Assembly: GCA_965645245.1 (NCBI GenBank)
Contig: OZ287067.1
Coordinates: forward strand, 1,054,001-1,118,000
DNA length: 64,000 nt
Source: Massalongia carnosa
Lineage: Eukaryota
Direction: 5' to 3'
Shown here: positions 1 through 64,000 of the stretch, piece by piece
Layout: each line of letters opens with the position of its first letter
How positions within the stretch are numbered: position 1 is the stretch's first letter
Notes under the pieces: generated by a model
Told to the model about the DNA's origin: nothing
Database searches by the model: none
Seen by the model: only the letters and a program-made list of their open reading frames with translations
Translations under genes and position numbers: made by a program

Positions 1-131
1 GATTGTGCTGCTATAGGTTGTCAGCTGAGGGACGGTTTGGGATTTATGGTGGCTATTTTACCTTGGCTTTTCAGCAAAGGTTGCCGCCCATATCTCTTAA
101 CATCCGATTTTGCTCGTGGTGGGGACATCAT
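1..131 (-). CDS. Possible first exon and intron of a gene running off the left edge
   Basis: ATG at 131 opens MMSPPRAKSDVKRYGRQPLLKSQ, followed by an intron-like segment GTAAAA...GCTGAC...TAG (~61-11). No homology recognised. Confidence 0.3.
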
Positions 132-1457
132 GATTGGGAATGAGGGGACAGGAGGCATTCGTCTTTATTGCCGCTTGGTGCACTGTAGGATGGTGTTACG
201 AATAACACCGACGGAAGGTGTGGTGGTTGGCAGGCAACGAAGCCTTGGCGGCGGCATAATTTTGGCTGCTACAGTAGCCTAATTGGTCCATGAGTCATCG
301 GACAATTCGGCCCGTCCGCCTGAAACATATCGTTCTATGCAGCTGAACACAGCGCTCACAGATCCAATGCAACCATTCACAGCCACTGCGAGAGCCGCTA
401 ATGGCGGGCCGGTGTTTCCGCTGCGCTATCAGATACCATTTTATGCACGATTTACTAATTTCGGCATGGTAGCCTACGCTGTTAGCTATAGTGAGCTAAC
501 AGGTCCAATGTAGAAGGCTAGCACGGAATAATTGTTGCTCTAGCAATTCATGTATAAGAACACTGCTAAATACCTGCTTCATCACCGTATTTTCATTGCC
601 TTACCCAACGCATTCTGATCTCAGTCTTAGGCTTCCCTCCACAATACCCACCTGCTGCAAGAAATCCCATTTTGCAAACCCACTTGTGGTGCTTTTCCCG
701 GAAAAAGTATGGCTAGTAACCGAATTCTTGATAAAGTGGTTCTAGCCACGATTCAAAAGGCTTCTCAGCGGTTTGTACTTGAGGCAGCGACAGAGACACA
801 AACATTTCAACGAACCGAGGAGCATGTCAATGCCGCCAAAGCCAGAATAATCGGTATTGTCCAGGGCAGTGATAAGATGTTGCCTGCAAATACGGCGAAA
901 GCGGTTGTGCGGTGAGTGCTCAGCCAAGATGCCGGATATAGACATAGCTCTGAACTTCGACGAAGCGAATTTGAACATGGAGCCGATAATCATATCGACG
1001 TGGTCTGCCTTGATAAGGATGGCAAATACATTAAGACCGAGCATATTATACCAAAGAAATGAGACTCGACGGGTTGACTGTTACAGGCGGGCATGAATCG
1101 TAGGTATTTTGGGGCTGCCTTGATCTTGATTTGTAAATTGGGTTAGACGGAGAGCAAGCCTTGACTCTAGAGCTAGATGGGAAGCATTTAGATACAATCA
1201 GAAAAGTGTTGGACATCGACATAGGTGGGGGAGTATGGTACTATATTATGTTCCGTGCAAAGTCAGGCCACATGTTGTAGAGACAGTGCTAGTAATGATC
1301 CACGTAAGCTGCTGCGTCAGTCCTTCACGATGAAAGAAGCTGATTAGCGTTGAACGGCTGCTGAGCACCATTTTAAGCTGCAATTCTAGCATTACAAGAC
1401 CAGGCATATTCTTGATTTCCATAGAAAAAGAACCTGAGATGAAAGTAATGCGAGATG

Positions 1458-2583
1458 CTAATCCGCAACGCCCGAAAGCCATCGGTCCTGCAGAAGGTCT
1501 TGGGCTGATGGTCGATCTCTCGGGTCAAGCTTCATTAATCTATCAAGGAAAGCCATGGTCTCCTTACAGAAATGAATAGCAAGTGTATTTCTGTATTTCC
1601 TTCTCCCTCCTTTTTGAGTAACAAGCCCCTCAATACCGTGGAGGTATTCTGCCGTGACGGTGTCTGAAAGTTCCACGTATTTGTCTGGAAAAGGTCCAAA
1701 ATAAGCACATTGAAGCGTAAGGACCATAACCGGATATATCTCATCTTTCTCATCCACTCCAAGCGGACTAAACAATCTGGCTCCGGTTAGAGCCCACGTT
1801 ATCTACGCTTAAAATTAATATGCTTGTCTTGCTTTCACTGGTAATCATGGTTGCCACATACCAGCGTGCCAAGAGCCCATAGATCCACTTTTGTTGTCCA
1901 GGGCAGTCCAAACAACCCTTCGGGTGCGCGATACGTCGGATGAGTAAAGATATGGTGTGTAGCCGGCTCTATTCTGATGGAATCACCCAGGTCGATCAGT
2001 TTAATCCTGCTGAGTGTACCATGCTGATCGAAATCAACGACTATGTTGTCGGATTTGATGTCTGAAATCCAGCTTCAGTAAAGCCACGGTAGGCTGAGAA
2101 CTCACGAAGGGGTTTCGTTTTAAAACATACCTGTGTGTGCAATACCCTTCTCATGCATTGTTACCAGTCCCTTGAGGACAACCCTGGTCAACCTTTTAAT
2201 CTCCTCTTCCTCGAGCTTCTGCTGGGGCCGCGTGTACAATACGTTGTGGAGGTTGTCGGCAAGATATTCATACACCATAATCTTCTGATCCGGGATCAGA
2301 TTAACTAATTGTCGAAAGGAGCCGTGACCACGAAGGTATCCATCAAGGGCTTTGGCCTCGGCGTTGTAAGATTGGCTATCGCGAGCTTCTTTGAGAATTA
2401 CGTGCTGTTGATCGTTGCTGCCACACATTAGCAAAGATGCCAAAACATTGGGTTGACCTAACGAGCTCCCTACCTTTGTCCCAGCCAGACATTCGGACAA
2501 TCATTTCTAATTAGTCGCAAGACTCTATACGTCGCTTTTCGCCAGTTGCCGCGAAGAACGAGATTTGGCCGCAGTAAAGACAT
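1458..2583 (-). CDS. Ser/Thr protein kinase (compact single domain, about 4 exons)
   Basis: Spliced reading gives VILK (VAIK-like), IAHTDIKSDN catalytic loop, LIDLG, YRAPE, VDLWALG, and LDPRDRPSAQDLLQDRW. GT-AG introns lie at about 2473-2420, 2131-2063 and from 1861. ATG at 2583. Confidence 0.85.
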
Positions 2584-3077
2584 GGAAGCTGCGCTACAGA
2601 AAATTAGGAGAGCTGAAATGACAGTTGACCTAACTCCGGATAGCGCAGTTCCAGGCCACTAGCCACCGCCAATTAGTGGCTTGGCTTCTGCCTTAAAAAC
2701 ATAACTAAGGTGGGGAACTCTTCCCCCATTTTTCCATTCCTGAAAAATATACACCATTAAAACATCGATTTACGGTCACGTGGTATTCAAAAGGCACAAA
2801 ATTCATAGAAAGACTGTGATTCGATAGCAGAGGAAAGTTGCCCTTCAGGGAAATTCGACTCAAGAAGTTCGGTTTTGTGTAGACTTGGCAAGGATGCCAT
2901 GAAGCAAGGTGGTGGTTAAGAGTTGTCTGAGAAACTATGGAGGAAGCGGGTTAAATACACTATGCTTGGCAGCACCTTCCCTGACCTTCCCCAGCTACCT
3001 AACTGGAAGCTACCACCTTTCTATCCCGTAACACTCTGAAAGCAAACTTTAGTACATGACTCCTGTTAGCCATAAAT

Positions 3078-3953
3078 ATGGCCTTCTTTCCCAAGACCTA
3101 TTTCCTATGTCCACCATCCGATTTCATCTTCCCACCTCCAGCTGGTCCATTGACTCTTGGCACCATCATCCGATCGACCTCGACGCCGCAGGTTCCCCTC
3201 AACAGAGCGAGTGTCGTTCCCGTGGCGAACGAGAATCCCCCCGTGGTCGAGACGGATTGGAAAAAGACGGTCACGCATGAAACGAAATTTGGCTTTGGTA
3301 TCTACGCGCAGTTCTTGCAGATGGCCGTGGGCGGCGGTCTGGGACCGGAAGTCGATGTCGGGCACTCGCGCCAGAGAGTGAATACTTTTTATTTTGATGC
3401 CATGACTACGCTCGTGTTCGAGCCGACGACCGAGTATATTCACGAAGCTGTACGAGCGCCCTCGGTGCAGACTTATTTGAAGGACCATAAGCAGCGTTTC
3501 GCCCCTAGTGTCTCGCTCTTCCTCGTTACCGGCATGAAGATTGTCAAGGGCGCGAATATCAAGTACTCAACCTCGGCAACGAGTGGAGTTGCGGCAAATG
3601 TGGGCATCGCCTCAAGTGCACTTGGTGGTATGAGTGTGGGACCAAAGGGCCATTGGACAAGTACGACCGAAGACGAGAACGAATTCAAGCGGGATGCTGA
3701 ATTTGTTTTTGCTTTTCGCGTCAAAAGGCTCAGGTTTAAGAAGAAGGTAGAGGTGGAAGACTACAACAAGGGTGCGTTCTTATCGATCAATGATGGCAAA
3801 GACAACCACGAAATACAACATGTTTTGATAGATGACCAAGATGGTTCTGACATTGAAACCGCAAATCTTGTGTCGGATGTGACCGAAGACGGTCCTGTGT
3901 ATTGTGTTGCTGCTTCGTTACCCAATGTCCAAACAAGATCGGGTAATACATAA
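3078..3953 (+). CDS. Fungal gasdermin-like pore-forming protein (HET-Q1/RCD-1 family), 291 aa
   Basis: Intronless ORF with motifs typical of fungal gasdermins: YFLCPPSDF..PPPAGPLTLGTII, SLFLVTGMKIVKGA, FVFAFRVKRL and YNKGAFL, followed by a short acidic tail. It sits next to an S8 protease. Confidence 0.82.
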   Translation: MAFFPKTYFLCPPSDFIFPPPAGPLTLGTIIRSTSTPQVPLNRASVVPVANENPPVVETDWKKTVTHETKFGFGIYAQFLQMAVGGGLGPEVDVGHSRQRVNTFYFDAMTTLVFEPTTEYIHEAVRAPSVQTYLKDHKQRFAPSVSLFLVTGMKIVKGANIKYSTSATSGVAANVGIASSALGGMSVGPKGHWTSTTEDENEFKRDAEFVFAFRVKRLRFKKKVEVEDYNKGAFLSINDGKDNHEIQHVLIDDQDGSDIETANLVSDVTEDGPVYCVAASLPNVQTRSGNT

Positions 3954-4010
3954 ATGAATTTCAAGCATCCACAAAGGAATGAACTTGGGTATCCTAATCA
4001 TACATATGTT

Positions 4011-7000
4011 CTAATCATACATATGTTTTTTGATATCCTTGATCTTGTTATATACCTCTTTCCTTGACGAGTCTGTATCAAATAATATATGAGGCGTGAT
4101 ATAGTCATAACCTACTCCTCTTCTCTGTCTGACCATGTGCTTTAGAATTGCATCCATTGCATGGACATCATTGATCCATGACCCTAATAAATCGCTGCCA
4201 GCAGGCAAGTCCCGTTCCTGCTGCCGGACAAAGGATATAATCGAGGCAGCAAGTCCTGCAGCAATTGGCGTTGCTACTGAGGTTCCTGACATAATGTTCA
4301 CAAAGTCATTATGTCCTTTTTTCCCTGCTGGCCAATGTGAACTGACATTTTCCCCGAGCAGACTGAAATTGACGTCTTTCTCGTCAGCTGTAGGGTTGAA
4401 GGTAGACGGGTTACCGTTTCCATCAGTCGCGTGTATGCAAAACACACCAGGGTATTTAGCTGGGAACGATCGACCGAGATTTGCTCCGTCATTCGATGCT
4501 GCAGCGAACATGAGTATATTATTGTGTAATGCAGTCGATATGGCTATTTTGATACGCTCATGATATTCGCGGATTCCGAATGACATCGTGATGACATCAA
4601 CTTTCCATTCCGTGACTGCGTGATCAATCGCCTATTCGATGATTAGTACATGTCATATTCAATTTTACAAAGAGCAAGACTTGCCTCTGCAATTGTGTCA
4701 TAGCTATCGCGGCTCAGGGTATCCTGACTTGCGATTTTGGCGATGTATATCTCAGCGCATGTAGCAAATCTGAGAAGGAGACCAAGAGCATGAGTCCCGT
4801 GCCCAATCTCGTCCTGGATGTCAAAAGGCCCAGCTCCAGATACGAAATTTTGTACTCCCTTAATTCTTGAATCAAATTGTCCATCATTGATCAGTAATGG
4901 ATTGCTAGGATCAAGTCCGGAATCCAACATTGCTATTCGTACCTGCCGCAGGTTCTGGGGAGAACTCGCGATCGATCCCGCAGGTAGCTGTGTAGTAGTA
5001 TCAAAGGGATCGACATGATGATAGATTGACGATGAAAGGCTGTCCATCCATTTTTCCGATAGTGTAGTGCTAGTTTTTACTTAGTAGTGAAGAGAGGTCG
5101 CCAGAAAGCAGTGAGATACTTACTCAGGCGAAGTAGCTACGAAGTGGCTTGCGTCAAAGAAGCATAGGCTTTTGGTAGAGGAGTCTGCACGGCGTCAGCG
5201 GCTTTGAAGGCCCCGTAGACTCATCATACCTTTGGCGTGGAGCTGTTGAACCGGGACATGCATATCCGCAGCTTTATTGTTCGTAACGATGTTAAAGGAA
5301 GTCGAATTGAGGGCTGGAGGCGAAAGTACTGCCAAATATTCGTTGCTTCTAGCACCGGATAGAGGTTTGCTTGTTTGTTGGCGGATGAGATCTCCGCCGA
5401 TCGTGCCCCAGCAACGTTTGTTTTCCCGAGAGTCGAGGTCATTCAGTTCCTCTGGTCGAAGTTGCCACGTCTTAAATACCTCGGATTCAAGGCGCTTGAT
5501 AACATTCTGGTAGAAAAGTCTTTGAACGCTGGTAGACTCAAAATTCGTGAGCTCTCCGGTAGGAAAATATTCCCACTTCAAGCATGCTTTGGCAGCGAGA
5601 TAATAATCTATACCGACATTGACTTCCAGATCTTCAAGAATATCGAGGGCGGTATAATAGTCAGCATTAATGTTTCGGACCGTCTCGGCGTCGGTTTGCC
5701 ATGACCCGACAGGTCTGCAGTATTGAAGCTCGCACAAGAGGATACCCAGAGCCAGTACGCTTGCATTAGGATGTACCATGTGCTTCTGGGATTCACTTTG
5801 GTTCTCTCCAGTACTAGTCTTCCTGGCTGAGATAATTGGAGCTTGCTCCACGGTTAGGAAGGGTTTCGTGATATCGGGTAGCTCTCCGTGCTGTATCGGC
5901 TGAATGAAGTGAATGTTCGAGTGGTTAAATGAGGGTTGCACCCATGGCGTCTCCAAGAACGGAAGTAATGCTGTGGCGAGTGTGACTGCTAGGATACGTT
6001 TTCCCTTATATGGTAAGACAAACGAACCACCGTGCAGCTCCTGTTGGCGCTGGAAAATATCCGCGAGGGATAACATACCCGGCTTTTCAGCATCGTCAAA
6101 TGTTTTGGGTTGGGGGCGCAGCCTCTTAAATGATCTGTCCTCGTAAAGAAGATGCAAGCAATTGCGATGGTCTAGTGACTCAGTGATTGACTGACAGATG
6201 TGCGTAGATTCAGCGAGCTTATTCGATGCAAGTCTGGGAGAGCTTGTGGTCTTTTCGTCGTGTTTGTCTCTGTTCTTACTCAGTACATCCGGAGTCGAAG
6301 AGAACGGCTAGACTTACTTCACCGTGATCTTGCCCTCTTGCTGTGTGATTGCAAGAAGAGATCGGATGCCAAAGGACACTTCGAAACATGTCTCTGATTG
6401 AGAGGACTTCTCCCGTCGGGGCAACGAAAGTCTAACACTCAAACCTGCGCACTTCTGACAAACGCAAGTCCATTGTGTTCGTAATCCCTGATGCAGCGAC
6501 ATTGAATGTCTTCTCGTAAGAATAGCCAAGTCTGCTTCGGGGGCGCCAATTTCGTCGTCCACCTCAGCCTCCTCGCGGTGCAGAACCCGTCTCTTTCTTG
6601 CTTGCATGTCCATGCGTGACAGCTCCTCAAGAATGGCGTCTTTCTCGCGCTTACGCTTGCGCCTGCTGGTGGGAATGTTGGATGGTGGATCAGTATGCGT
6701 GCCATGATCAGGTTGCTGAATCATGCGACGGACAGCCTGCAGCTTTGGGTACGGTACAGGGCTGTTCAAGTCCTGCTGCTATCGTCCGTTGGTCAACAGT
6801 TGTGGCAAGATGTAGATTGAAGTAGTGAGATTTGCTCGAAGGGAAGATACTAACTGTATCTGAGTCCAGATCAGAGTCATAGTGAACAAGATTTTCGAAT
6901 GTTGTCAACGTTCTTTTGACTTGGGCCGGCTCAAAATCGTCAAAATCGTTGGTCTCGTGCTGGAGATACGATTCGGTCCTCACCCAGGCATCGAGTGCTT

Positions 7001-7097
7001 GTGATTGCAGCGATGCGGGCGCTGACCTCTCTGGCTGTTTTCGAGCGAAGAATCCGAGTATGCTTTTAAGCAGTCCTCGTGCGTCTTCATTATCCAT
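4011..7097 (-). CDS. Subtilisin-like S8 serine protease with long N-terminal region (HET-Q2-like), multi-exon
   Basis: Catalytic motifs RIAMLDSG (Asp), GHGTH (His), AAASNDG (oxyanion Asn) and SGTSVATP (Ser) lie in the 3' exons. Upstream ORFs 6708-7097, 6314-6769 and 5195-6157 join through GT-AG introns. No signal peptide is evident. Confidence 0.88.
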
Positions 7098-7421
7098 GTT
7101 ATCGGATCTCCATTACTCGGATGCGGAGGGGTTTGAAGAGATTCTAGGTCTGGGAGGCTTTTGGATGAATCATACATATTCTTTGATTTGGTTACGATGA
7201 TACAAATGGTCAGCCTCGAGGTCACCACTCTAGGGTAGCGCCCGCGGCTCGAGTTTCAGCTCCAGTGCTACGGTACGGCATATTGAAAGTTCCTGCAATA
7301 GGTACCTAGACCAACCATTTTCTAAGCGTATTACGCGTAACTTGATACAAGCCGCACTTCACACTACAATCTAAGATCTTTTTACTTTCTAGTGGACTCT
7401 GTTCAGATCTATGTTGACATC

Positions 7422-8473
7422 TCAAGGCGAACAAACCGGATTCTGATACCTCCAGTCGTAGACTTTGAGCATAACGTAATGATGAATAGCAACAGCAAAT
7501 ACAACGGAAAAATGGAAAATCTGATGTGATGATCCGCAAAGATCAAATCTCTTCGGATTCGACCTCTCTGGAAAATCGGCCTACCATGCAATTAGTCTAC
7601 CTGATATTGTCTTCACAGGCTGAATCTATACTTACTGCATAGAAGAGCATGCCAGTAGTGAGCGATGCAAGCTCAGCCACATAGTAGAGCCAGCCAGTCT
7701 GTAGAGTTGCTTGGCTATATGGAACGATACGAGGGAAGTAGAGAAGAGGTATAAATACGGGGATGGCAGTCGCAAGAAAGGCAGCGAGTCGAAGCAACCT
7801 CCACTCAACGCCCTGCAATCGAGGGTGTAATACAACAATGATCGATAGCAGCCCAGGAATGCCAATCTGTGAGCCGGCCATGATTAGTGCTCGTACATTT
7901 TCAGTTGACATTTCGACTCAAGCTTACCAGAGGTAAATAAAAATGTCGCAGACCTGGCTCACAGTAAAAGCCGAAGTGCGTTCCCGACATGCCAGATCCG
8001 GCGAGTTGGAGAATGATAGCGACATAATCCAAACGGCCCCAGAAATTCGCATAGAATTCTGAGTGGGAGAGGGATATATGGTAGGCAGTTGAGACTGTGA
8101 AGCAAAAGGTCGAGACGCCTAGGTGAAGATAGAATGCTAGCTGGTCTATCCAGAGTGCATTTGGGTAATGCGCGCGGAAGTACAGGTGAATGAAGGCAGC
8201 CCTAGTGAAGGTGATAGCTGCTGGCACCATATGGGAGTATATGTTGACGGTCTCATTGTGAACATATCCCAAGCTCTCGACGCATTGCTGAAGCGAGTCA
8301 GAGATAGGGCGGAAGCCAGTAAGAAGAAAGGGATTGTGTGAGCACCACGACGGCACCTCATGCCGCCCCAGAAGTTTGCGCTTCGTCCTAGGCCGCTTGG
8401 CAATTGGGTACTTCGGAGACTTCTTCTGCACATCATTGCTGTCACCGGGAGACGAACGTTGATATAGAGGCAT
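7422..8473 (-). CDS. PAQR / hemolysin-III family membrane receptor (Izh/AdipoR-like), 3 exons
   Basis: Motifs HNETVNIYSH, STAYH, RLDYVAI and last-exon FPER..PKRFDLCGSSHQIFH, with multiple hydrophobic helices. Stop TGA at 7424-7422. Confidence 0.88.
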
Positions 8474-8634
8474 GGGAAGCGGTGCTTGAATTTAATACTT
8501 AGTTCACTTAGGCATCGACTTTTCGAACACTTGGTTTTGAGAGATGGAGACTGGAGCGTTGGTATGTAATGAAGAAAGACAAGGCTGTGCGTGGGTAGAA
8601 AGATATACCCCCACGTGTACACAAAGCTGTTGTA

Positions 8635-9994
8635 CTATCCCCCCCCCTGAATAATTGTAAAAACATGGGTTTTTTGCATGGGGGGGTGCAGGGGAGCATA
8701 CAGGGGTAAGTTGACCAATCAAATCAGTGGAATCTTCTCGAATCGAGGCTAATTTTCAATATATGTGAGTTTTGTAGATGCTTTCGTCGCATCAATTTTC
8801 TTGTCGCAATGAAATCATCTTCTCGAAAAGAATACAATAATTCAACTTCTCGTGATCAACGATTAGCTATTCAAACAACTCTTTTATTCAAAGTCCCCTA
8901 TATCGAAATTCAAAGTAAACTGAATGTTACGCGTCGTCAAATTTCATACGTACGCAATCAGTCCACGACTTCACAAAAGCACAAGTGTGAAAGAAAGCCT
9001 TTGCTGCGTACGCCTCAGCGAAATTCTTTGAATAAATGAATTCAACTATCGCTCTCTCATAAGCGAATATCATGAAGACATATTTCAGATCAAGTCTTCG
9101 AGTTGAATTTAATAGAAACGAAAGAAAAAGTCATGCAAACAGTCTTTCGTCAGCTTGAATATTGTCGTCGTGCGAGCAAAAGAAAGGACTTTTCGAACGA
9201 TTCACGAGTCAAAAATCTTCGCCTTCAATTCGTTCACGAAGAAGTCATCTGATCGCGCGAACGAGTATATAATCAGATATTTTCTGACGAGGTTTGAGCA
9301 AATGAGAAAGCACATATCACATCGTACGTCACGATCAAAGAAGATGACTCTGATAAATACGCAGAATCGAACGTTCAACATAAATACAGCAAATGTTCTG
9401 CATGAATGTTTCATGAAACGATATATCAGAAAAGAAAGAGCTCAGCTGTCTTTTGAGAAAAAGAATGAGAAAGTATTGATTCAGTCAAATATGATCAGTT
9501 CATTTTACTTGACATTCAGGCTTTGATGAAAGCACATCCTGAACTGACGTATATGCAAGATAACGCTTCATCTCATCGATTCAAATTGACAGAGACAAAT
9601 TTGCAAAGAAGAGAAATTCGTACGATCAAATGATCTTCTTATTCTTCTGATTTGAATCTCATTGAGCATGTATGAAGCTGAATGAAAAACTGAATACAGA
9701 AACGATATTGAGAGTTCAGATGAAACGTGATCAACATGCCTTTGAATCGATTGAGAATTGTCATTTGAAAAGCATGAGAGGCCGTGCCTGATGATTTCAT
9801 TGAATGTCTTGTAAATAGCTGATGAAGTCGATGTAGGACCGTCATTGAAGCTCAAGGCGGTTCTATCAAATATTGAAATTAGCCTCGATCGCAAAATTCC
9901 ACTGATTTGATTGGTCAACTTACCCCTGTATGCTCCCCTGCACCCCCCCATGCAAAAAACCCATGTTTTTACAATTATTCAGGGGGGGGGATAG
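8635..9994 (+). mobile_element. Tc1/mariner DNA transposon, family 1, decayed (1360 bp)
   Basis: TA at 8633-34 and 9995-96. Terminal inverted repeats (TIRs) of about 100 bp, extending imperfectly to about 125 bp. Transposase relic from ATG 8809 with YMQDNASSH and *SSYSSDLNLIEHV* (WPPYSPDLNPIE-like); Trp codons converted to TGA. Confidence 0.92.
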
Positions 9995-10807
9995 TAGGTG
10001 TTGAGAAAAATTAGAGGGGCTGGACTGCGCAATTTAGGAAGCTGTCATGTCCAGCGCACGGTTGTAGCCTTATTTTGCTGCCCCCACCACCCCCAAAGAT
10101 CCTTGAAAAATTGGTCCGAAAGGGAGACGGCCTGAAACCGATACAGTCCCTGGAAAAAAGTTTCCGCGATTAAGCGAGATTTCGTGATTTTCGTGTCGCG
10201 ACCCCATCAACCCATCATTTGTAAATAATTCTATCATAATGAAACGAACTCCTTTAGCTATCATATCTTCAAATCGTGTTTTCAAGACTGAGCTGACTCC
10301 TTATCAAAGAGGAATTTTGATAGAAGCAGCTAGTTTGAAAGCTACATCAGTTGAAATTCAGAAGATCTCTGAAATTCGAGAATCAACGGTCAGATATTGA
10401 AGAGGGGTAGTCGTGGGTGGTGCATACGTGATGACCTCAAGGAGAGAAGACCGGCAGAAAGCAAACAAGGAACACACGTGAAAACAACAAACAGAACGTT
10501 GGCGGTGACGACTCGGCCACTCTGACACTGTCACTCGGACACGAATACTGACTCTGAAGGAAAGAAAAATATTGATTGCCTGTCTGTCTAGAGGGTGAAA
10601 CTTCCCCTATCTATAGAAAAATGGGCGCCTTAGCCCCGGAAAAACCTCCCCTCCGCTCCGTCCACACCAATCTCCCCCCCTCTCCTCAGCACCTGCCCTT
10701 GTCCCTATTCACCCTATCACACACCCACAGACCCCCATTGATGCCGTCCCCTGGCATCAATGTCTGCCTGTACTATCCGCCCACCCAGTCGGCGGCGCTC
10801 CCAAGTC

Positions 10808-45430: not shown

Positions 45431-48400
45431 ATGGCGTCTCGGAATGATTACACTGTGGGATGGATTTGCGCTCTTTACTTGGAGTTAGCGGCTGCCAAGG
45501 CGACGTTGGACCAGATCCATCCCAACCTACCCGCAGATCCAGCAGCAAACGACACAGATGCCTACGTCCTCGGAAGCATCAGCGGTCACAATGTCGTGGT
45601 CGCTTGTTTATCCTCCGGCGAGACTGGACCCGTGTCAGCGTCTATTATGGCCGCTCAGATGCGGGTGGACTTTAGCGCTATCCGATGGATGCTGACGGTT
45701 GGGATTGCAGGAGGGGTGCCGAGCTCGAAAGCAGATATTCGTCTTGGCGACATTGTGGTGCATAGACCGACAGCGGATAGTCCCAGTAGTCTCACACACA
45801 ATGCTAAGAAGGGACCCACGAACGACCAGCAGCTCACAATAACGACTTTGAATAAACCATCAAACCTACTCCTCACAGCAACTGGACGCGTTGAGACGAC
45901 TGCCATCCTGGGCAAAAGTCAAATTCCGCGTCATATCTCAGACATTGTACAGAAGGACTCTAGCTTTGCGCGTCCAGATTCAACACAAGACATTCTTTTC
46001 CAACCGGACTACGATTATGTTAAGGGCGAGGATGACTGCGATCATTGCGATCTCGGTAGGGTTGTTGTCCGCCAGCCGCGAGACACGCAAAATCCCAAAG
46101 TATATTATGGCTTGATCGCGTCCAGTAACCAGGACGTACGTGATGGCTCGATTCGCGATAATTTGGCGGCCAAGCACGGGATCCTTGCTTTCGGAGCAGA
46201 GGCAGCGGAGTTCGAAGATGCGGACACCGTCGTGGTGATTCGAGGAATCTGCGACTATGCAGATTCACACAAGAGCAAGATTTGGCAGGGTTGTGCGGCC
46301 GCCGCTGCTGCCGCATACGCCAAGGAGATGCTATCGTTGATTTCCGCAGCCTCGCGGAAGATCTCTCCAGCGACTGCCATAGACTCGAGTGTTGCCGTTA
46401 TTCTTGACGCTTTGCTCTTGACCAGACCTGATGTCGATCGAAGCTCCCTTATCGCGCTGAAAGGGCGGAGGGTAGAGGGGACCTGCGACTGGATCGTTCG
46501 ACACCCTCGCTATCGGCAGTGGTTAGAGGGGGACGAAGCACCGCTTCTACGAATTTTGGGGGGACCTGGGAAAGGAAAGACGATGCTGGCCATTTTTCTC
46601 ACGGAGGAGCTGCAGCCAATTGTTGACTCAACAAATGATATTCTCCTTTACTACTTCTGTGCTAAACGAGATATGAGGCGAAAGTCGGCAATCACAATTC
46701 TGAGAGGTGTGCTATACCAATGGCTCAGTTTGCAGCCCAACTTGGCTGACCACATTCATCATTATTTCGATGGATCTGAGAAAACCAAGTATACTGTTTC
46801 CAGCTTTGAATCCTTATGGGAGCTCCTCCTGATTTTTCTGAACCAAATGGGTCCTTGTAATATAGTATGCGTTCTGGATGGCCTCGATGAGTGTGAAGAA
46901 GAGTCTCTCAAGCAGCTTCTAGATGCTCTTGACAATCATTTCCTCGAGTCAGACAAGGGACCAAAAGCACTTCTAAAAGTAATACTTGTCTCCCGTCCGC
47001 AGCCAGAGTTCATCGAGACTAAGCTTCACCGATTTCCACGGATCGCGCTCGAAGACTCGAACGTAGAGGTGGGACAAGACGTCGAGAAATACATCTTCGC
47101 CAAAGTTGCCGAGCTGGCATCCGAGCAAAGTCTATCAGAGGATAAGCTATTGCAAATTCGGCAGACCATGATGGCGAATGCCGAGGGAACCTTTCTATGG
47201 GTAGGGTTTGTGGCAGATGAGCTCAAGGGAAGGAGTTGGCGGAAGATAAGTGATATTCTTCATGGTGTGCCAAAAGGCCTTGGGGGAATATATCGACGAC
47301 TCCTCCACCAGATCCAAGACAAAGACAAGCTGCTTCCCATTCTTCAATGGGTTGTTCTCGCGAGTCGACCATTGACAGTACACGAGCTGGCAATGGCAGT
47401 AGAACTTCAGGATTCCGATATCCCGATGTCCGCAGAAGTTGTGAAAGATCGACTTGCAGCGTGCGGTTTAATGGTGAAAATTGACGATGATGTGGTCAAT
47501 CTCGTTCATGAATCGGCACGAGACTTCTTTCAGAGCGACCAGGTCAAAAGTGAAGATATCGATGTCTTCTACATGGATTTCAATACCCATCGGACTCTCT
47601 TGAGGACGTGTCTGAATATCATCGAAAAGAATTACAAAGGTTCAGGCAGTATCAGTGACGCAACCCGCCACAATAAACTCTTGACATACGCGAGCCTCCA
47701 CTGGCCAGATCATTTCCGCTACATATTCAATTCGCCCGAGGCTCGATCTGAGCTCTCGCGTCAGTTCTTTCGACGGGAAACTCAAGTTCGTGAGGATTGG
47801 TGGAGATTCTATTGGGAGCGGGAGCAATACGGCGGAGCTCCGCCCAAATTCACGCTGCTGCACCTAGCAGCCTTTCTCGGGAATCTTGAATGGGCGAAGA
47901 TTTTACTCAAGCGTCATTCTGACGATGATATGTCTTTTCACCGTCCCGTCTCTCAGGTTGATAGTGATGGCCGAACGCCACTCTTCTGGGCCGCCGCCCG
48001 AGGCCATCGAGAAGTTGCAGAGCTGTTACTCGACCACGGTGCCAGGATCAATGCTAGAGATCGAAACCAATTGAGCGCACTTCATATCGCAATTACTGGA
48101 GTGCACAAGGAAGTAGTGTCTCTACTGCTGGATAGATCAGCACGCGTGGAAGGAAAGGATAATAACGGCGATACTCCACTGAATCGAGCTGTCCAAGTTG
48201 GCGCCAAGGATATCGTCAAGCTGCTCCTGGAGCATGGAGCCAGGATAGACAGACTACCCGGGACCATCACTTTGAGTGAATCCCAAACTTCAGTGGAAGA
48301 GCGTACGAGAGAGCTACTACAGCTTCAAGATCAGCTTCTTGCTGCGCGATTTAAAGATCAATCAAAGCTGGTCACCCTCATGCTCAAAATATGGACGGCT

Positions 48401-49423
48401 TCCCTGCATGTATCGCCGGTCTTCCATCTGGTTTCGTCATACTTCAGACACTGGACGAACAAACGCCGCTGGTTCGTGCTCCAAGATCTGGTCAAGAACA
48501 ACGAAACGACCAAATTGCGGAAATGGACGCAGACGTTCATGGTTTTGGGCAATCAGCTGGCAGGAGATCGAAATGCCAAAAACGTGGAAACTGTGTTAGG
48601 CCTCACGGTTCGAGTATTCAACGAGGTTTCCATCCCAAGTCTATCAGCTCTTCTAATTATGGGAATCTTAGTGGGCTCGACCTTTCTCTTATCAACGGTT
48701 CAACACGGAAGATGGAGAGAGGGAATGGACATAATCAGTCGGATATATGCGGAATGGTGTGTTATAGCCTTTCGAAAAAACACCACCGAGGCGTTGGATA
48801 GTGGACTTCGTCAGTATTTAGCCGATCTCGACACTTGTATGCGAGGTAAAAAAGAGGAGGAGACGGTGGATCGATTAGAAGTCTGGTTCAACTCGTTATA
48901 CGGCATTCTTTGCACCCGGCAGCAGCCAATTATCGAATACATATTCGCCCTGACCACCGAATATTTCGAGGGCCACATTGGCGGAGTTTGGGAAGAAGTA
49001 ACCTTCCGAGACGCCAGTCAAGCCTTTGCCTACGAACTCGATTTCATCAACGAGCGCCAAGATTCCTCCCGACTATCGTCCTATCTCTCCATGTTTTTCA
49101 AAATGGCCAACAAGAGCGCGAGCAAAGAGAACCGCGACTGGCTCTTCGATCTGCCTCCCGCGTCGTGTCTGATTCTCTGTCAAAACAACAACAACCCCAG
49201 CACCTACCGCTGGTTGATCTGCGAGGGATTGCCGGAGACATGGAGTAATTTGATTTTCCAAGAACAAGGGCCGGCTCAAAGGCCGGCTTTCAAGGCTTTT
49301 GCGGGATGTCTGATCGTTGGGAAGCAGTATGGATTGTCGTTGACTGCGGCGTCGAGGAAAATGGTGAAGAGCAATCTGGATTCGATTGAAGGGTTGGATG
49401 GAATGCTGGATCAGATTTCCTAA
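45431..49423 (+). CDS. Fungal NLR-like protein: PNP_UDP phosphorylase domain - NACHT - winged helix - 4 ankyrin repeats - unknown C-terminal domain (1330 aa)
   Basis: PNP motifs YTVGWICAL, GIAGG and IRGICDYADSHK. Walker A GGPGKGKT, Walker B CVLDGLDEC, GTFLWV, LVHESARDF. Ankyrin repeats such as DGRTPLFWAAARGH. Confidence 0.92.
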   Translation: MASRNDYTVGWICALYLELAAAKATLDQIHPNLPADPAANDTDAYVLGSISGHNVVVACLSSGETGPVSASIMAAQMRVDFSAIRWMLTVGIAGGVPSSKADIRLGDIVVHRPTADSPSSLTHNAKKGPTNDQQLTITTLNKPSNLLLTATGRVETTAILGKSQIPRHISDIVQKDSSFARPDSTQDILFQPDYDYVKGEDDCDHCDLGRVVVRQPRDTQNPKVYYGLIASSNQDVRDGSIRDNLAAKHGILAFGAEAAEFEDADTVVVIRGICDYADSHKSKIWQGCAAAAAAAYAKEMLSLISAASRKISPATAIDSSVAVILDALLLTRPDVDRSSLIALKGRRVEGTCDWIVRHPRYRQWLEGDEAPLLRILGGPGKGKTMLAIFLTEELQPIVDSTNDILLYYFCAKRDMRRKSAITILRGVLYQWLSLQPNLADHIHHYFDGSEKTKYTVSSFESLWELLLIFLNQMGPCNIVCVLDGLDECEEESLKQLLDALDNHFLESDKGPKALLKVILVSRPQPEFIETKLHRFPRIALEDSNVEVGQDVEKYIFAKVAELASEQSLSEDKLLQIRQTMMANAEGTFLWVGFVADELKGRSWRKISDILHGVPKGLGGIYRRLLHQIQDKDKLLPILQWVVLASRPLTVHELAMAVELQDSDIPMSAEVVKDRLAACGLMVKIDDDVVNLVHESARDFFQSDQVKSEDIDVFYMDFNTHRTLLRTCLNIIEKNYKGSGSISDATRHNKLLTYASLHWPDHFRYIFNSPEARSELSRQFFRRETQVREDWWRFYWEREQYGGAPPKFTLLHLAAFLGNLEWAKILLKRHSDDDMSFHRPVSQVDSDGRTPLFWAAARGHREVAELLLDHGARINARDRNQLSALHIAITGVHKEVVSLLLDRSARVEGKDNNGDTPLNRAVQVGAKDIVKLLLEHGARIDRLPGTITLSESQTSVEERTRELLQLQDQLLAARFKDQSKLVTLMLKIWTASLHVSPVFHLVSSYFRHWTNKRRWFVLQDLVKNNETTKLRKWTQTFMVLGNQLAGDRNAKNVETVLGLTVRVFNEVSIPSLSALLIMGILVGSTFLLSTVQHGRWREGMDIISRIYAEWCVIAFRKNTTEALDSGLRQYLADLDTCMRGKKEEETVDRLEVWFNSLYGILCTRQQPIIEYIFALTTEYFEGHIGGVWEEVTFRDASQAFAYELDFINERQDSSRLSSYLSMFFKMANKSASKENRDWLFDLPPASCLILCQNNNNPSTYRWLICEGLPETWSNLIFQEQGPAQRPAFKAFAGCLIVGKQYGLSLTAASRKMVKSNLDSIEGLDGMLDQIS

Positions 49424-52400: not shown

Positions 52401-54446
52401 CGTGATCATAAGTTGCTGGGCCGTCTTCTAGCCCCTGGGGACGTAGCCTTATATCCCGGAGTAAGCAGATACTAGATACCTTACCATCCTGTGCTGTAGC
52501 CTTATTGCAGTCCTCGTCCTCTCTAGCTCCTTCTCCAAGCATCTTATTACATTTTGAGGCGTCATCTCTAGATTCAGCAGGCTTCCAGAGACTCGAATCT
52601 GTCTGCGGGGACAATTATTACTGCCTTGCAATTTTCGAAGTTGTATTAATTTTCAGCCTCACTTCGCAAGGGTTCGACGTGTGGCAGCCTGCAGGATGAT
52701 GAGGAGGCGGTGAGACAATGTTGCATGGGCAGCGCACATCGTACCAATAGCACAGTACAGTCCCTGGACAAAAGTTTCCGCGATTAAGCGAGATTTCGTG
52801 ATTTTCGTGTCGCGATCTCATCAACCCATCATTTGTAAATAATTCTATCATAATGAAACGAACTCCTTTAGCTATCATATCTTCAAATCGTGTTTTCAAG
52901 ACTGAGCTGACTTCTTATCAAAGAGGAATTTTGATAGAAGCAGCTAGTTTGAGAGCTACATCAGTTGAAATTCAGAAGATCTCTGGAATTCGAGAATCAA
53001 CGATCAGATACACTCTTGCTCAAGCCTCATCACGTAACAACAATGTCAGTAAACCTCGATTCGATCGTTTCAAATCAATCAGTGATCGCGATAAACGTCA
53101 CATCATAAGAACTGCACGCCTCGAGCTCAAAATAATCTACAGAGAACTGATGAAAAAGATCGAGATCAAATTTCATCGCAAAATCATCTATCGAGTTCTC
53201 AAAGAGTATGACATCATCAATTGATTGATCAAAAAACGATCTCTACTCACTCTCGAGATGACTGCGAAAAGATATGCATGATGCTGAGAGCGACGAGACT
53301 GAACTTATGACGAATGAAAACTTTATATTTGAAGCGACGAATGTTCGATAAAACGAGGCACAGAAAAACGTCGCGATTGAGTCTTTCGCATGCTCAATGA
53401 AAAGTGAAATGAAGATATGATTCAGTCATACTGTAAGAGTCAGACCTGGCGATTAGCAGACACCAGGCCTAGGGATATGTGACAATGTGAAGACACTAAT
53501 GATTTGCTATACTAATATACTAAAAGAAGTATGTAGGTAAAGCGGAAGACTAATCGTTGAAGATTGCATCTCCCTCGAGCAGCCTCCTTATATACCCGGA
53601 CCGAAGCCCTTGACCCTCTGGGCCCTTGATACTGTAACTATCTTGACCGCCCATTACTCCTACCGGATAAGCCGGCTAAACACTCTGCTGACTGCATCGT
53701 GGACACTGTGCTGACTGTATCGTAGACACTGTGCTGACTGTATCGTAGACACTGTGCTGACTGTATCGTGGACACTGTGCTGACTGTATCGTACCATCCG
53801 CTCACTAATCGTACGAGCATCCTCGTATATCTCGATCGCTCGTACTATACTCTCGGCAGTAGATACCAGCCGCGTAACGCAGACCAACTGCTTTCCATAT
53901 GACTAAGCCTAGCCGTAGAACTAAGGCCCGCTTAGTTAGCTTAGCCCTTATTCCTTCTATGCCCTGACAATTGCCTCCTCTCCTATAGTGCTGGTCCTCC
54001 AGCACGTACAGTACTCGAACGCGGAAGGGAGTGTGTAGGGACGTGATAGAAGATGTCGCGTAGATAGCAAGTTTGTTGTGTAGAAAGCGCGAATACCTGG
54101 CGCTTGACGTAGGTAGATGTAAATATCACTAGCTTCTCGGTAATGCTGGGTCGCCGATGCCGCTCCGAGCGCTAGAAGTAGCGGAGAAGGGGACGATGGC
54201 GATTATCAGCAGAGATCCGAGCTCGGTAACGCTAGCGTTGGTGGTTTGTTGATTTAGGTGAAGACGGTGAGGAGTACGAGACTGTTGTCTCCGAAAGCTC
54301 CTCCAGCGAGAGTCTCACGGAAGAAAAGGGTGATGAGGAGTCGGACGAGGAAGTAGAAGATACTGATGGTGATGATGAGGTGCCGGACGAGAAAGCAGAA
54401 GGTTCCGATGGTGATGAGATGGCGAATAAGAAGGGTTTCGCTGGAT

Positions 54447-57400
54447 TCAGCGAGTAACCTGTAGTTTCTTGATTCGCCTGCGCTTTGCTTTCGGCTTTGC
54501 ATCGAAATCCTGCTTCAGTTCTAAGGCTCCATCCAGATCTTTCTCTGGTACCCACTCATCATATTCTTCAGGGTATCCTACCCATTTTACCTTATAGAAT
54601 ATTTCCCCTTTCTCAGACCTTCTACCTATAATTTCTTCCACTTCCCATTCCTGTTCATCGTTAATAATTTCAGGTGGGGGTAGAAACGGTATATGCTCTT
54701 GACCATCTCTTCGCTTGTAAGGTTCTAGGTAAGAGACATGAAAGACCGGGTGAATTCTATAAGTCGTAGGAAGAGCAAGACGATATGCCTGCTTGCCGAC
54801 TGCTTCTAGAATGCGAAAAGGACCTAAAAACTTATGTGAAAGTTTCTTACTAGGCCTTTTTTGTTTTAGATTCTTGGCAGATAACATTACCAAGTCCCCT
54901 TCATTGAAATCTTTCTCAAGATGTTTCCTGTTGTAGTACTTGGCCTGCGCTTCGGATACGCTTTTCCAGCGTGCCTCTAAAGAATACCTGAACTCGTGTA
55001 ATTGCTTTACTCGTTCTTTCGCAGCGGGCACCCTCTCCACAGCGACGTCGTCCCCGACTTCGTAGCGAATCTCCGGGTTATAGCCGTACATACAATAAAA
55101 GGGGCTGCACCCAAGCGTACTTTGATAACTGACTTGGTAGACAAATTGTGCTAGGGGCAATAGTGCCACCCAGTTGGATTGATTGTCAGTGCAGTAAACT
55201 CTCAAATAGTGTTCAAGGGTCTGGTTTTGTCGTTCGGTTTGGCCATCAGTTTGAGGGTGAAAGGCCGTGCTAAGCCGGCGTTTCGTCTTTAAATGAAAAC
55301 AAATTTCTGACCAGTACTCACTGGTAAAGACCGACCCTCTATCCGATACTATGCCCTCAGGAGTGCCGAACTGTAATACTACCGATTCAAACAGAATTTC
55401 TGCAAGGTCCACTGCATTGATTTTTTTCGTAACCGGGATGTATAGCGCCATTTTGGTATATCTATCCACAATTACTAGGCACGAGTCATAAACCCGGCCG
55501 AAACGCTTGCTAGGTGGAAACCCAGTTATGAAATCCATAGTGATTTCTTTCCAAGGACCGGAAGGACGTGGAAGCGATTGCATAACCCCGTAAGGTCGGT
55601 GCCTAGGCGCCTTCGTCCTTTGACAAATGTCGCAGGATTCCGTGTACTTCTTCACAGTCATGTTAAGTCCTTTCCAATAGTATTTGCGGGTAAGCAACTC
55701 AGCTGTTTTCTCCGCACCAAAATGACCCGCGAGCTCGTCGTCATGATGACGCCGCAACAGCTCCGCACGAATAGATTCTTCATCGGGCACGTAAATTCTG
55801 CCACGATGATTGAGAAGATCATTGCTATCTATAGTCCAAATTGCTTCGGGGGAGCGACCACCCTTGCGCTTCAAAGACTTAGCAACGGTCTCTCGCCTGC
55901 TAGACACGAATGCGTCTTTCCCCTGTAGCGCCTTGATGAGTTCAAGCACTGACTTGGAAGCACTTTCCAAAGGCTTTTCTTCATCTGATAAGGCAACAGC
56001 TACAGCCCGGGGAATACATTGCGTCAAGCCGACTTCAAAAGTATCACTCTCTTCGTCAAGAGAAGTAATTGATTTAGAGGTTTCACCCTCTAAATTCTCC
56101 AGGGGTTCAATCCCGGACGAAGCTATCTTTGAGCGAAGATCATACCTAAGTGCGGCAAGCACCGTACGAATTCCCGGCGTATAACCTACGCATAAGGAAT
56201 CTATTTTGCTCAGCTTCTTTTGAAGAGTAGGCAACAATCTCGTCACCTCGGTGTTGATGCTCTGATAATCAGGGCGCCTAGACGGTGCATCGGCAGGATT
56301 GGTCTTTCCCGAGCGATGCATGATTACGAAATCATAAGCGGCTAATTTCATAGCCCATCGCGCTTGCCGACCACTCAACACCTTAATATTCATAAAACCC
56401 CTCAAATTGTTGTGGTCTGTCAGGACCTCAACGGGGTGCAGGCTACCCTCCAGGTAATGCCTCCAGTGTTTAAAACACATCACAATGGCCAGCAACTCTT
56501 GATCATGGGTTTCATAGTTGCGCTCGGCCGGTATCATCTTCCGCGAGTAGAAAGCGACGGGATGCCATTGCCCATCCTTCTGCAACTGGGAGATAATGCC
56601 AGAGATTCCGAAATCCGATGCATCGGTCTCTAGGCGAATGAGCAGTTCTGGATCGAAGTGAACCAAGATGGGCGCGCCCTGAAAGGCTTCTTTCAGCTTG
56701 CTAAACGCTTCCGCTCCTTCGGCCGTAAGATAAAAAGTACCCCTTTTTATCCCAGCCTGCATGCCTTTCAGCATGTCAGTCAATGGCCTAGTGATTTGAG
56801 AATAATGACGTATGAAACGTCGATAGAAATTGGCGAATCCTAGAAAGACCTGAATGTCTCGAAAGGACTGAAGTGCAGGCCAATCCCGCACGGTTTCAAC
56901 CCGGCGTGGATCCATAGAGATACCATCGCTGCTAATGATAAACCCTAGATATTCCACGGCCGTAGCAAAGAACTCGCACTTTTTAAGATTTGCATAGAGA
57001 TCGTGTTTCCTTAGACGACGTAACACCTCTTTAACATGCTCCACATGGCTGGTTCTATCTTTGGAAAATACCAATATATCGTCCAGATAGACTACGCAGA
57101 AAACATCCACGATCCCAGATAAAGCTTTATTGATGTAAGCTTGAAAAGTTGCAGGGGCGTTGGCTAATCCAAAAGGCATAACCATATACTCGTAGTGTCC
57201 GTAACGGGATCGAAATGCTGTCTTCCACTCGTCGCCCTTGCGGATTCGGAGACGATGATAAGCATCTCGCAAATCCATTTTGGTAAAATAGGAACACCCG
57301 TTTAACTGATCCAGTATCTGCGTGCTAAGAGGGAGCGGATGACGATTCTTTTTGGTCACCTTATTCAATCCTCGATAGTCAACGCAGAGGCGCAGAGTAC

Positions 57401-58253
57401 CGTCCTTCTTAGGCACAAATAGTATTGGTGCACCTGCAGAACTGGTGGAGTCCCGGATCCAACCCTTCGCCAGGGCGTCGTCAAGATATTCCCGAAGAGT
57501 CTTAAGCTCCGTATTCGATAAGTTGTATAAAGGACCATAAGGTGGATCACCGCCTTCTAAATCGATAGCGTGGTCACAGTCCTTGTGCGTAGCTAATTGA
57601 TTGGCTCTGTCCTTAGAAAAAACATCCTGGAATTCAGCAAATTCCACAGGTATCCCCTGCGTTTCGTTGGTGTTCCGGCTGTTGTTCTCATCAACAGCGC
57701 CAACATTAACAGGTTGTCTTTCGGAAGAAGGTGCAATGGGTTGAGCCACTATAGCATAGAGTGGTGCCCCGGAATCCAGGGTCTTCGCAAACTGTTTAGG
57801 CTTGCACAACTCGAACATATCAGACTGAAAGCCATAACGCCAGCGCTTCGCTCCATAATCGATTACGATACCCAGCTGTTTGAGACCAGGGAGACCCAAC
57901 ACCAAGTCAGGGCCCTGTTTGTCAATTGCGTAAAACACGCTGGTAAAGGTGCGCTGTCGTTCCCAAGTATCCTCGAGAGCCATTACTACCTCATAAGCTC
58001 CATAGCAGTAAACCTCCTTACCATCCATGAATTGAGGAGCAGGTAGTTCGCTTTCAATAGGTCTAAGATCTGAAGCGACGACGAATCCCTGATTAATCAC
58101 ATTAATCTCGGCTGCTCCATCAAGCAACACTGTCGCCGGGTATTTTTGGCCTCCGCTCGTTATAGTCCCCTCAGGAATTAGGCTTGGCTCGCTTTCTACT
58201 GATCGTTTCCCTCCATCGGCTGGCGAGCTTTCCGTGGAGGTTTGGCTTTTCCC
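54447..58253 (-). CDS. pol: Pol of element D2
   Basis: Same domain order and motifs as D1 pol, with a few amino-acid substitutions. Confidence 0.95.
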   Translation of the reverse strand, partial: GKSQTSTESSPADGGKRSVESEPSLIPEGTITSGGQKYPATVLLDGAAEINVINQGFVVASDLRPIESELPAPQFMDGKEVYCYGAYEVVMALEDTWERQRTFTSVFYAIDKQGPDLVLGLPGLKQLGIVIDYGAKRWRYGFQSDMFELCKPKQFAKTLDSGAPLYAIVAQPIAPSSERQPVNVGAVDENNSRNTNETQGIPVEFAEFQDVFSKDRANQLATHKDCDHAIDLEGGDPPYGPLYNLSNTELKTLREYLDDALAKGWIRDSTSSAGAPILFVPKKDGTLRLCVDYRGLNKVTKKNRHPLPLSTQILDQLNGCSYFTKMDLRDAYHRLRIRKGDEWKTAFRSRYGHYEYMVMPFGLANAPATFQAYINKALSGIVDVFCVVYLDDILVFSKDRTSHVEHVKEVLRRLRKHDLYANLKKCEFFATAVEYLGFIISSDGISMDPRRVETVRDWPALQSFRDIQVFLGFANFYRRFIRHYSQITRPLTDMLKGMQAGIKRGTFYLTAEGAEAFSKLKEAFQGAPILVHFDPELLIRLETDASDFGISGIISQLQKDGQWHPVAFYSRKMIPAERNYETHDQELLAIVMCFKHWRHYLEGSLHPVEVLTDHNNLRGFMNIKVLSGRQARWAMKLAAYDFVIMHRSGKTNPADAPSRRPDYQSINTEVTRLLPTLQKKLSKIDSLCVGYTPGIRTVLAALRYDLRSKIASSGIEPLENLEGETSKSITSLDEESDTFEVGLTQCIPRAVAVALSDEEKPLESASKSVLELIKALQGKDAFVSSRRETVAKSLKRKGGRSPEAIWTIDSNDLLNHRGRIYVPDEESIRAELLRRHHDDELAGHFGAEKTAELLTRKYYWKGLNMTVKKYTESCDICQRTKAPRHRPYGVMQSLPRPSGPWKEITMDFITGFPPSKRFGRVYDSCLVIVDRYTKMALYIPVTKKINAVDLAEILFESVVLQFGTPEGIVSDRGSVFTSEYWSEICFHLKTKRRLSTAFHPQTDGQTERQNQTLEHYLRVYCTDNQSNWVALLPLAQFVYQVSYQSTLGCSPFYCMYGYNPEIRYEVGDDVAVERVPAAKERVKQLHEFRYSLEARWKSVSEAQAKYYNRKHLEKDFNEGDLVMLSAKNLKQKRPSKKLSHKFLGPFRILEAVGKQAYRLALPTTYRIHPVFHVSYLEPYKRRDGQEHIPFLPPPEIINDEQEWEVEEIIGRRSEKGEIFYKVKWVGYPEEYDEWVPEKDLDGALELKQDFDAKPKAKRRRIKKLQVTR

Positions 58254-63670: not shown

Positions 63671-64000
63671 CTATGTATTTTTCCTCCGCAGCCGTTTCCA
63701 CATCTTGGCCACCGTGAAACCAGAGCTCGCCGCCGCCGCCACACTCTCTGGTGGATCGTCCCAGAACGAAGCCTTTTTTTCCTCGTTACTTCGGACTCTA
63801 AGTGATGTGTCACTTCGGGGCGATGCGGTGCTTCTGGGCAAGGCGATTGTTTTGGGGGGACTGAGATTCTGCGCCTTGTGCTCCTCCTCCTCCTCATGTC
63901 CGCTCTTATCCGGTGACGAGGCGGATGCATTCCGCGGCGTTTTTTGAGCAGAGTGGTATCGACCGCCTTGTCTGAGGGCCGATTTCATCTGATAATCGAG
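63671..64000 (-). CDS. Probable 3' end of a gene entering from beyond the right edge
   Basis: The frame is open to the window end and has Ser/Glu-rich protein-like composition ending KMWKRLRRKNT*. It is followed by UTR-like low-complexity sequence. Confidence 0.45.
   Translation of the reverse strand, partial: LDYQMKSALRQGGRYHSAQKTPRNASASSPDKSGHEEEEEHKAQNLSPPKTIALPRSTASPRSDTSLRVRSNEEKKASFWDDPPESVAAAASSGFTVAKMWKRLRRKNT

Follow-up and report, generated by a model that had tools for sequence, protein, structure and literature searches.

The gasdermin HET-Q1 of Podospora is cut after F238, and removal of its tail by an S8 protease frees the pore-forming fragment; the cut must be exact, as strong toxicity is seen only with the 1-238 truncation (PMC8851545, PMC13475620). 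Clave 2022 (PMC8851545) described gasdermin genes beside genes for multidomain S8 proteases, and the activation of gasdermin-linked proteases is named as a major open question in a 2025 review (PMC12881547); as of 2022, only about one third of the long extensions of these proteases had an annotation. Here we analyze a gene pair of this kind, at positions 3078-7097 of a 64,000-nucleotide (nt) stretch of Massalongia carnosa contig OZ287067.1 (the window, to which coordinates refer unless stated otherwise). Our overall reading, to which we assign a probability of roughly 0.72, is that a lichen-associated ascomycete has at this locus a het-Q1/het-Q2-like cell-death cluster, intact and expressed, in which the protease is controlled by a pseudokinase and which is mobile as a unit. 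The gasdermin-S8 pair is of a type already known; what is new is a probable pseudokinase regulator and two conserved partner genes that had not been remarked before. The gasdermin gene has the following features, with lengths in amino acids (aa).

3078-3953, plus strand: gasdermin of the HET-Q1/RCD-1 family, 291 aa, no introns (sequence and fold matches)
3768-3782, plus strand: KGAFL, aa 231-235, candidate cleavage region, after F234 or L235 (GAF conservation; analogy with HET-Q1 F238/A239; PMC8851545, PMC13475620)
3783-3950, plus strand: acidic tail of 56 aa, putative inhibitory fragment (11 D/E and 2 K/R; position after KGAFL)

Judged by its sequence and its predicted fold, the open reading frame (ORF) at 3078-3953 belongs to the HET-Q1/RCD-1-type gasdermins. 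The profile and structure searches against RCD-1 and bacterial gasdermins by which the original prediction had proposed to check its gasdermin-like ORF both return matches. As a single sequence in phmmer, the ORF matches Neurospora RCD-1-1 and RCD-1-2 at E values of 1.2e-6 and 2e-6, and a profile built from 57 sequences matches the same two proteins at 9.8e-11 and 5.2e-12. Similarly, a Foldseek search with a model of low confidence (pLDDT, the predicted local distance difference test, 43.7) retrieves the gasdermin fold, with RCD-1 in all of the top 10 hits, followed by bacterial and mammalian gasdermins. No Pfam family was found for the ORF in a local Pfam copy, and an Rfam search of positions 1-10,000 gave no match. 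The gasdermin has one match in the 52-Mb genome and 305 homologues at an E value of 0.001 or better; the 120 of these that are listed are 59-99% identical to it, and the named ones are spread across Pezizomycotina.

The GAF motif is kept in 118 of the 120 listed homologues, in which the next residue is mostly L or M and is followed by a small residue. Because of this conservation, and because HET-Q1 is cut after F238, a cut near KGAFL by the S8 protease is plausible by analogy; cuts between F234 and L235 and between L235 and S236 both stand as candidates. The tail behind this point exceeds the median length in the family by about 13 aa. Two gasdermin cysteines, Cys11 (3108-3110) and the tail residue Cys276 (3903-3905), lie in motifs present in 117 and 116 of the 120 listed homologues, respectively; a disulfide tether or a lipidation site is conceivable from this pattern.

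The protease gene converges on the gasdermin gene, with the two stop codons 57 nt apart, well inside the 10 kb within which a protease gene and a gasdermin are counted as a het-Q1/het-Q2-like cluster. It is divided as follows.

4011-7097, minus strand: HET-Q2-like protease gene, 934-936 aa, six exons (splice model, homologues, the Logan protein P0497, RNA contigs)
4011-4942, minus strand: S8 subtilisin domain with D651, H692, N777 and S848 (domain search, homologue alignment, model)
5366-6481, minus strand: DUF7580 region, predicted pseudokinase, boundaries approximate (domain search, structure prediction, consensus of relatives)
5185-5229, minus strand: intron 3, 45 nt, with an in-frame TGA (5197-5195), in the lichen clade only, just before the S8 domain (homologue comparison)
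4632-4684, minus strand: GC-AG intron, 53 nt, between the catalytic His and Asn/Ser (splice model, homologous loci)

Both genes are intact, spliced and transcribed. The exons of the protease gene run, on the minus strand, from 7097 to 6855, 6778 to 6318 (the acceptor is probably at 6772), 6269 to 5230, 5184 to 5124, 5069 to 4685 and 4631 to 4011, and are separated by five introns of 76, 48, 45, 54 and 53 nt, one of which has a GC donor and one an in-frame TGA. In the 936-aa spliced model the catalytic residues are intact in a translatable frame, with codons at 4924-4922 (D651), 4801-4799 (H692) and 4280-4278 (S848). The model aligns over its full length with 100 long homologues, 86 of which have both DUF7580 and S8. 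P0497, a protein of 935 aa, shares 929 of 934 residues (99.5%) with the spliced model and covers all five junctions, with an intron 1 acceptor 6 nt beyond the modelled one; we infer that it derives from a spliced transcript contig. In two biocrust metatranscriptomes, contigs lie on both the gasdermin and the protease gene at depths of 2-5, expression being read where RNA contigs cover a gene and at the level of community libraries rather than of co-expression in single cells. In these contigs introns 2 and 4 are spliced out, and 53 nt are missing where intron 5 lies; the joint at intron 5 is placed 4 nt off the GC-AG site in the alignment, which we read as the GC-AG intron plus one synonymous difference, and either placement gives an identical protein. 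Two further runs, X1 and X4, were dropped as evidence of expression; they read through the introns and are DNA-like. A protease homologue at L006:968-2068 has no introns at two conserved positions, and is probably a transcript contig that also spans the gasdermin.

Thus, the tail-to-tail genes with stops 57 nt apart and the acidic tail of about 56 aa after KGAFL, as the original prediction had described them, are borne out. Its S8 protease with an Asp/His/Ser triad stands with respect to the triad, but the protease is not encoded by a single ORF and needs five introns.

Intron 3 bears directly on the integrity of the protease. Its donor reads GTATGA, its branch site GCTGAC and its acceptor CAG, and the corresponding 45-nt segment is open, in-frame, homologous coding sequence in all eight metagenome loci compared and in 25 of the 33 homologues displayed. 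In the remaining eight, which are 78-98% identical to the window and all in the lichen clade, the unspliced frame stops within the segment, at three different positions. Because the segment is coding in other fungi and the stops occur at three positions only in the lichen clade, the pattern fits an intron that arose out of exon sequence in the ancestor of a single clade. A TGA within a stretch that codes in other fungi might also be taken to mean that the protease is a nonsense-truncated relic in this clade, with the gasdermin orphaned or activated in some other way; one NCBI model (P0369) indeed ends at the TGA, and two others (P0121 and P0504) lack residues 645-730, and hence the catalytic Asp and His. 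We regard this as very improbable, since splice signals are present in the segment, P0497 is spliced across it and the S8 exons are open and 92-100% conserved within the clade. The GC donor of the 53-nt intron is also found in six of nine other intron-bearing loci, and the gap in P0121 and P0504 is most likely a gene-calling error in which this donor was overlooked, because the skipping runs exactly to the acceptor of that intron.

The same introns could, in another account, be what mainly keeps the protease safe: as long as the stop-bearing and GC-AG introns are retained, the product would be dead or limited to the N-terminus, and induced splicing would lift this block; the pair may then act in developmental death rather than in defence. 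Such control would draw on the stops in the lichen-clade homologues, on the recurrence of the GC donor and on one RNA contig in which intron 4 is spliced and intron 3 retained, a form that would give a product of about 595 aa without the protease domain; moreover, the development of spore chains in Coccidioides is driven by a pair of the het-q1/het-q2 type (10.64898/2026.10.27.762035). We consider this improbable as the main safeguard, because the homologues and loci in which the 45-nt segment is not an intron still keep the pair, the fully spliced form exists in P0497, and the retention is seen in a single contig at a depth of about 5, which may be pre-mRNA.

We favor control by the protease's own N-terminus, which extends for about 640 aa ahead of the S8 domain. 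Structure prediction suggests that its DUF7580 region is probably a protein-kinase fold without catalytic motifs, acting as a pseudokinase control domain. The catalytic motifs of kinases are VAIK, HRD and DFG; the protein encoded in the window and a consensus drawn from 131 distant relatives both lack HRD-like and DFG-like motifs, and the C-lobe helix LALGILLLEI is retained. No Pfam kinase family is among the 25 families listed for 79 DUF7580 members. Three further DUF7580 matches occur in the genome at 24-25% identity (L003, L004 and L005), of which L004 and L005 score the same and occupy the two strands of a single contig, while a captain gene is found about 11 kb from L003. The original prediction had concluded that the protease must be auto-inhibited, because both genes sit in one haplotype. 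Co-location is insufficient for this conclusion, as expression or splicing control could also protect the cell; auto-inhibition is likely because of the long N-terminus with its predicted kinase-fold domain.

Modelled on HET-Q1, the gasdermin would be kept inactive by its acidic tail until the cytosolic S8 domain cleaves it at GAF/L, and the released N-terminal part of about 234 aa would then oligomerize into a membrane pore and kill the cell compartment. The protease is predicted to be held off by its own N-terminus, a helical region together with the dead kinase-fold DUF7580 domain as the switch, and two weak introns, ahead of and within the S8 domain, may restrict the full-length protease further. 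Linkage tentatively suggests that the trigger could come from two co-inherited genes, a NOD-like receptor (NLR) gene and a zinc-finger/ankyrin gene, and the cluster would shift as a unit between genomic contexts. The features beyond the pair are listed below.

45431-49423, plus strand: open frame of 1330 aa for a PNP-NACHT-ankyrin NLR, a conserved neighbour of the pair (domain search, homologous loci)
63698-64000, continuing to about C1:1,121,250 beyond the window, minus strand: 3' end of a helical/C2H2-zinc-finger/ankyrin gene, conserved neighbour (homology)
7600-8473, minus strand: gene of the PAQR/HlyIII family with a provisional 3' end, located in the lichen block between the protease and NLR genes
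8636-44845, no strand: transposon insertions between the pair and the NLR, 72% repeat-covered, a decayed DNA transposon followed by nested long terminal repeat (LTR) elements

Conservation of the pair was examined in 20 metagenome gasdermin loci. A homologous S8 gene lies downstream of the gasdermin in all 12 loci with at least 700 bp of downstream flank (the other eight have less and fall outside this count). Because the S8 homologue is found in every locus with enough flank, the adjacency of the two genes in these sequences is not due to chance. The NLR is the next or next-but-one gene past the protease in three lichen metagenome-assembled genomes (MAGs), according to locus tags. In the more distant loci with at least 6 kb upstream, an NLR orthologue is found within 10 kb of the gasdermin in four of six, being present in L007, L009, L011 and L012 and absent from L008 and L013; its identity is 43-56%, and it is complete wherever the flank is long enough; because L007, L009 and L011 are one lineage, we count three lineages as support for the linkage. 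The zinc-finger/ankyrin gene adjoins the gasdermin in six of the seven loci with at least 4.5 kb upstream (in L013 the ankyrins are unmatched), and also in L021 and L024; its counterpart at 63.7 kb of the window has 58% identity and is the sole orthologue in the genome. The original prediction of a two-gene module thus holds for the pair, which is real, but the module is probably incomplete, with these two genes as conserved neighbours.

The Met of the EME-type motif of PNP enzymes is tied to catalysis. This Met is missing from the NLR PNP domain in all six aligned copies and kept in all eight DUF7580-PNP fusions; from its sequence, the NLR PNP domain may be catalytically weak. When the pseudokinase region and the PNP domain of the NLR were modelled as a complex, without alignments, the score was 0.00, which speaks neither for nor against binding. 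A fuller scheme, in which a four-gene, horizontally mobile inflammasome-like pathway would run from the NLR with its degenerate PNP domain and the zinc-finger/ankyrin adaptor through the DUF7580 domain of the subtilisin to gasdermin cleavage, with DUF7580 as a general pseudokinase switch for effectors of either the S8 or the PNP type and with the new stop-bearing intron of the lichen lineage as an added safeguard, seems to us rather doubtful. One protein, P0216 from Paramyrothecium (1638 aa), combines homology to the zinc-finger-gene N-terminus with HET, DUF7580 and S8; either the genes are truly fused or the annotation has run them together.

The NLR and zinc-finger/ankyrin genes might instead only hitch-hike on a mobile island, with the pseudokinase-protease itself acting as the sensor, as a decoy for an invader effector or for a ligand, in a plain two-gene module. 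We see this as a distinct possibility, given that immune genes cluster on Starship elements, where NLRs are standard auxiliary genes (10.1101/2021.12.13.472469), that the pair is kept without the NLR in L008 and L013, and that in the window the NLR lies 38 kb away. It is harder to reconcile with the finding that the gasdermin, protease, NLR and zinc-finger genes recur in three gene orders with unrelated flanks, the NLR and zinc-finger genes being the same orthologues while all other flanking genes differ; even at the locus L024, where gasdermin identity is just 30%, both a zinc-finger gene and an S8 gene of the kinase-like kind are present. Past the protease, no ORF is shared among the six loci compared.

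The separation in the window (about 37-38 kb between pair and NLR) is due to transposons that drove the two apart. The DNA transposon at 8636-9993 is AT-rich and decayed, and its terminal inverted repeats are near-perfect. Positions 10142-44845 and 52756-60726 hold LTR retrotransposons inserted into one another, whose gag/pol frames are open; two of the copies, almost identical to each other, lie at about 28-33 kb and 54-59 kb, with further copies upstream. A fatty-acid desaturase gene (61154-62533, plus strand) lies between the NLR and the zinc-finger/ankyrin gene. Neither it nor the PAQR gene has a match in the distant loci, and the PAQR gene is probably a passenger. On the other side of the pair, an intron-containing protein kinase gene at about 2583-1458 (minus strand) is divergent from the gasdermin gene at a distance of about 500 bp, with catalytic motifs that are apparently intact; it was rejected as a member of the system, having no homologue in the 20 metagenome loci.

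The cluster has close relatives in lichens of two orders. The gasdermin is 100% identical in Pseudevernia consocians (name inferred), 99.3% in Seirophora villosa, 98.6% in Xanthomendoza sp. and 94.2% in cf. Caloplaca, and in the near-identical lichen copies the protease and the NLR are 97.5-99.1% and 97.3-99.2% identical; the first three species span Lecanorales and Teloschistales. In Cladonia borealis, also of Lecanorales, the homologues are just 63-64% identical, and in a quick tree Trypethelium, a Dothideomycete lichen, falls inside the same 20-row gasdermin clade (support of 100 in the Shimodaira-Hasegawa-like approximate likelihood ratio test, SH-aLRT). Because the block is 94-100% identical across two orders and a Starship marker gene lies nearby, we think it fairly probable that the block spread horizontally on a Starship-like island, probably between lichen fungi. 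Auxiliary genes of Starships are of the DUF3723, NLR, FRE and PLP types; the search covered the first two, and both are present, DUF3723 being encoded 8.5-12 kb upstream. Several points weigh against this part of our reading: the near-identical named records are all MAGs, the block identities are read without a core-gene baseline, the Cladonia divergence could be due to ancient paralogy, and the nearest DUF3435-like captain gene is about 130 kb off and points outward (L038:851-2483, C1 at about 924.8-926.6 kb, minus strand). A Starship has its DUF3435 captain at the 5' end, facing into the element. Many DUF3435 matches occur in the genome, where only 60 candidates were scored, but over 180 kb on the upstream side of the window and 60 kb on the downstream side no captain heading the segment was found; the region is at most a degraded Starship or Starship-like.

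Since every named near-identical record is a MAG, the copies in Parmeliaceae and Teloschistaceae might all belong to a single fungus associated with lichens, the contigs of which had been wrongly binned into several MAGs, which would remove the transfer and leave the cluster itself as it is. This appears unlikely, although it has to be reckoned with: the copies differ in a graded manner (94-100%), one of them sits on an 87.6-kb contig, the left-flank genes for DUF3723 and DUF7924 are private to the source organism, in clusters of one or two members, and DNA runs under three other organism labels, from two studies, contain 72-90% of the 31-mers. Just left of the window, L026:1179-9814 holds DUF3723, PLAC8, SRF/MADS-box and DUF7924 genes. 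A small spliced ORF at 709-1062 (plus strand) has an exon 1 with nine cluster members, on contigs other than those bearing gasdermins, and may be the left edge of the shared block.

The locus thus supplies candidates for how gasdermin-linked proteases are activated, namely a fold for a widespread unannotated N-terminus and two conserved partner genes, with open frames in all four genes; if the transfer is true, it is a cell-death immune cluster moving among lichen fungi of different orders. No literature on DUF7580, on Starship-borne gasdermins or on the four-gene linkage was found in a search that covered few subscription papers and did not reach the SI Appendix of Clave 2022.

Compared with known systems, the setting resembles Starships, including Tangerine of lichens (PMC13486527), in its upstream DUF3723 gene, nearby NLR, accessory region rich in transposons and high identity between lineages of lichens, and differs in that no captain was found heading the segment. 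The closest solved relatives of the gasdermin, in both sequence and fold, are Neurospora RCD-1-1 and RCD-1-2 (PDB 8JYX-8JYZ), but RCD-1 forms a heteromeric pore independently of cleavage and has no protease partner, and the match stops at residue 218, before the tail. The protease family is already contained in Dataset S2 of Clave 2022, where two family motifs occur 72 and 52 times, with rows from T. reesei, P. fici and R. collo-cygni; its N-terminus is unannotated ('---') in all 12 rows displayed, compared with the predicted pseudokinase of the window. The accessible parts of that paper (PMC8851545) survey protease neighbours only, and do not report NLR or zinc-finger neighbours. A kinase-type domain before a gasdermin-linked S8 domain is partly anticipated by the PKinase-S8 HET-Q2-like proteins, or 'kinase-like' fusions, of Dataset S2 and the legend of Fig. 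6 in PMC12881547; 'kinase' occurs only eight times in Dataset S2, and the two such rows viewed are a different family with 1139-aa N-termini, whose motifs, compared by eye, resemble those of the separate zinc-finger gene of the window. With Podospora HET-Q1/HET-Q2, compared by description, the window shares a gasdermin of similar size, a short C-terminal tail, an S8 triad and the lack of an I9 propeptide match. In P. anserina the het-Q genes occur as idiomorphs, each in its own strains, and HET-Q2 consists of a bare protease of 366 aa, whereas the window carries both genes in one haplotype and a protease with an N-terminus of about 640 aa, and thus differs from an allorecognition locus of the P. 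anserina type.

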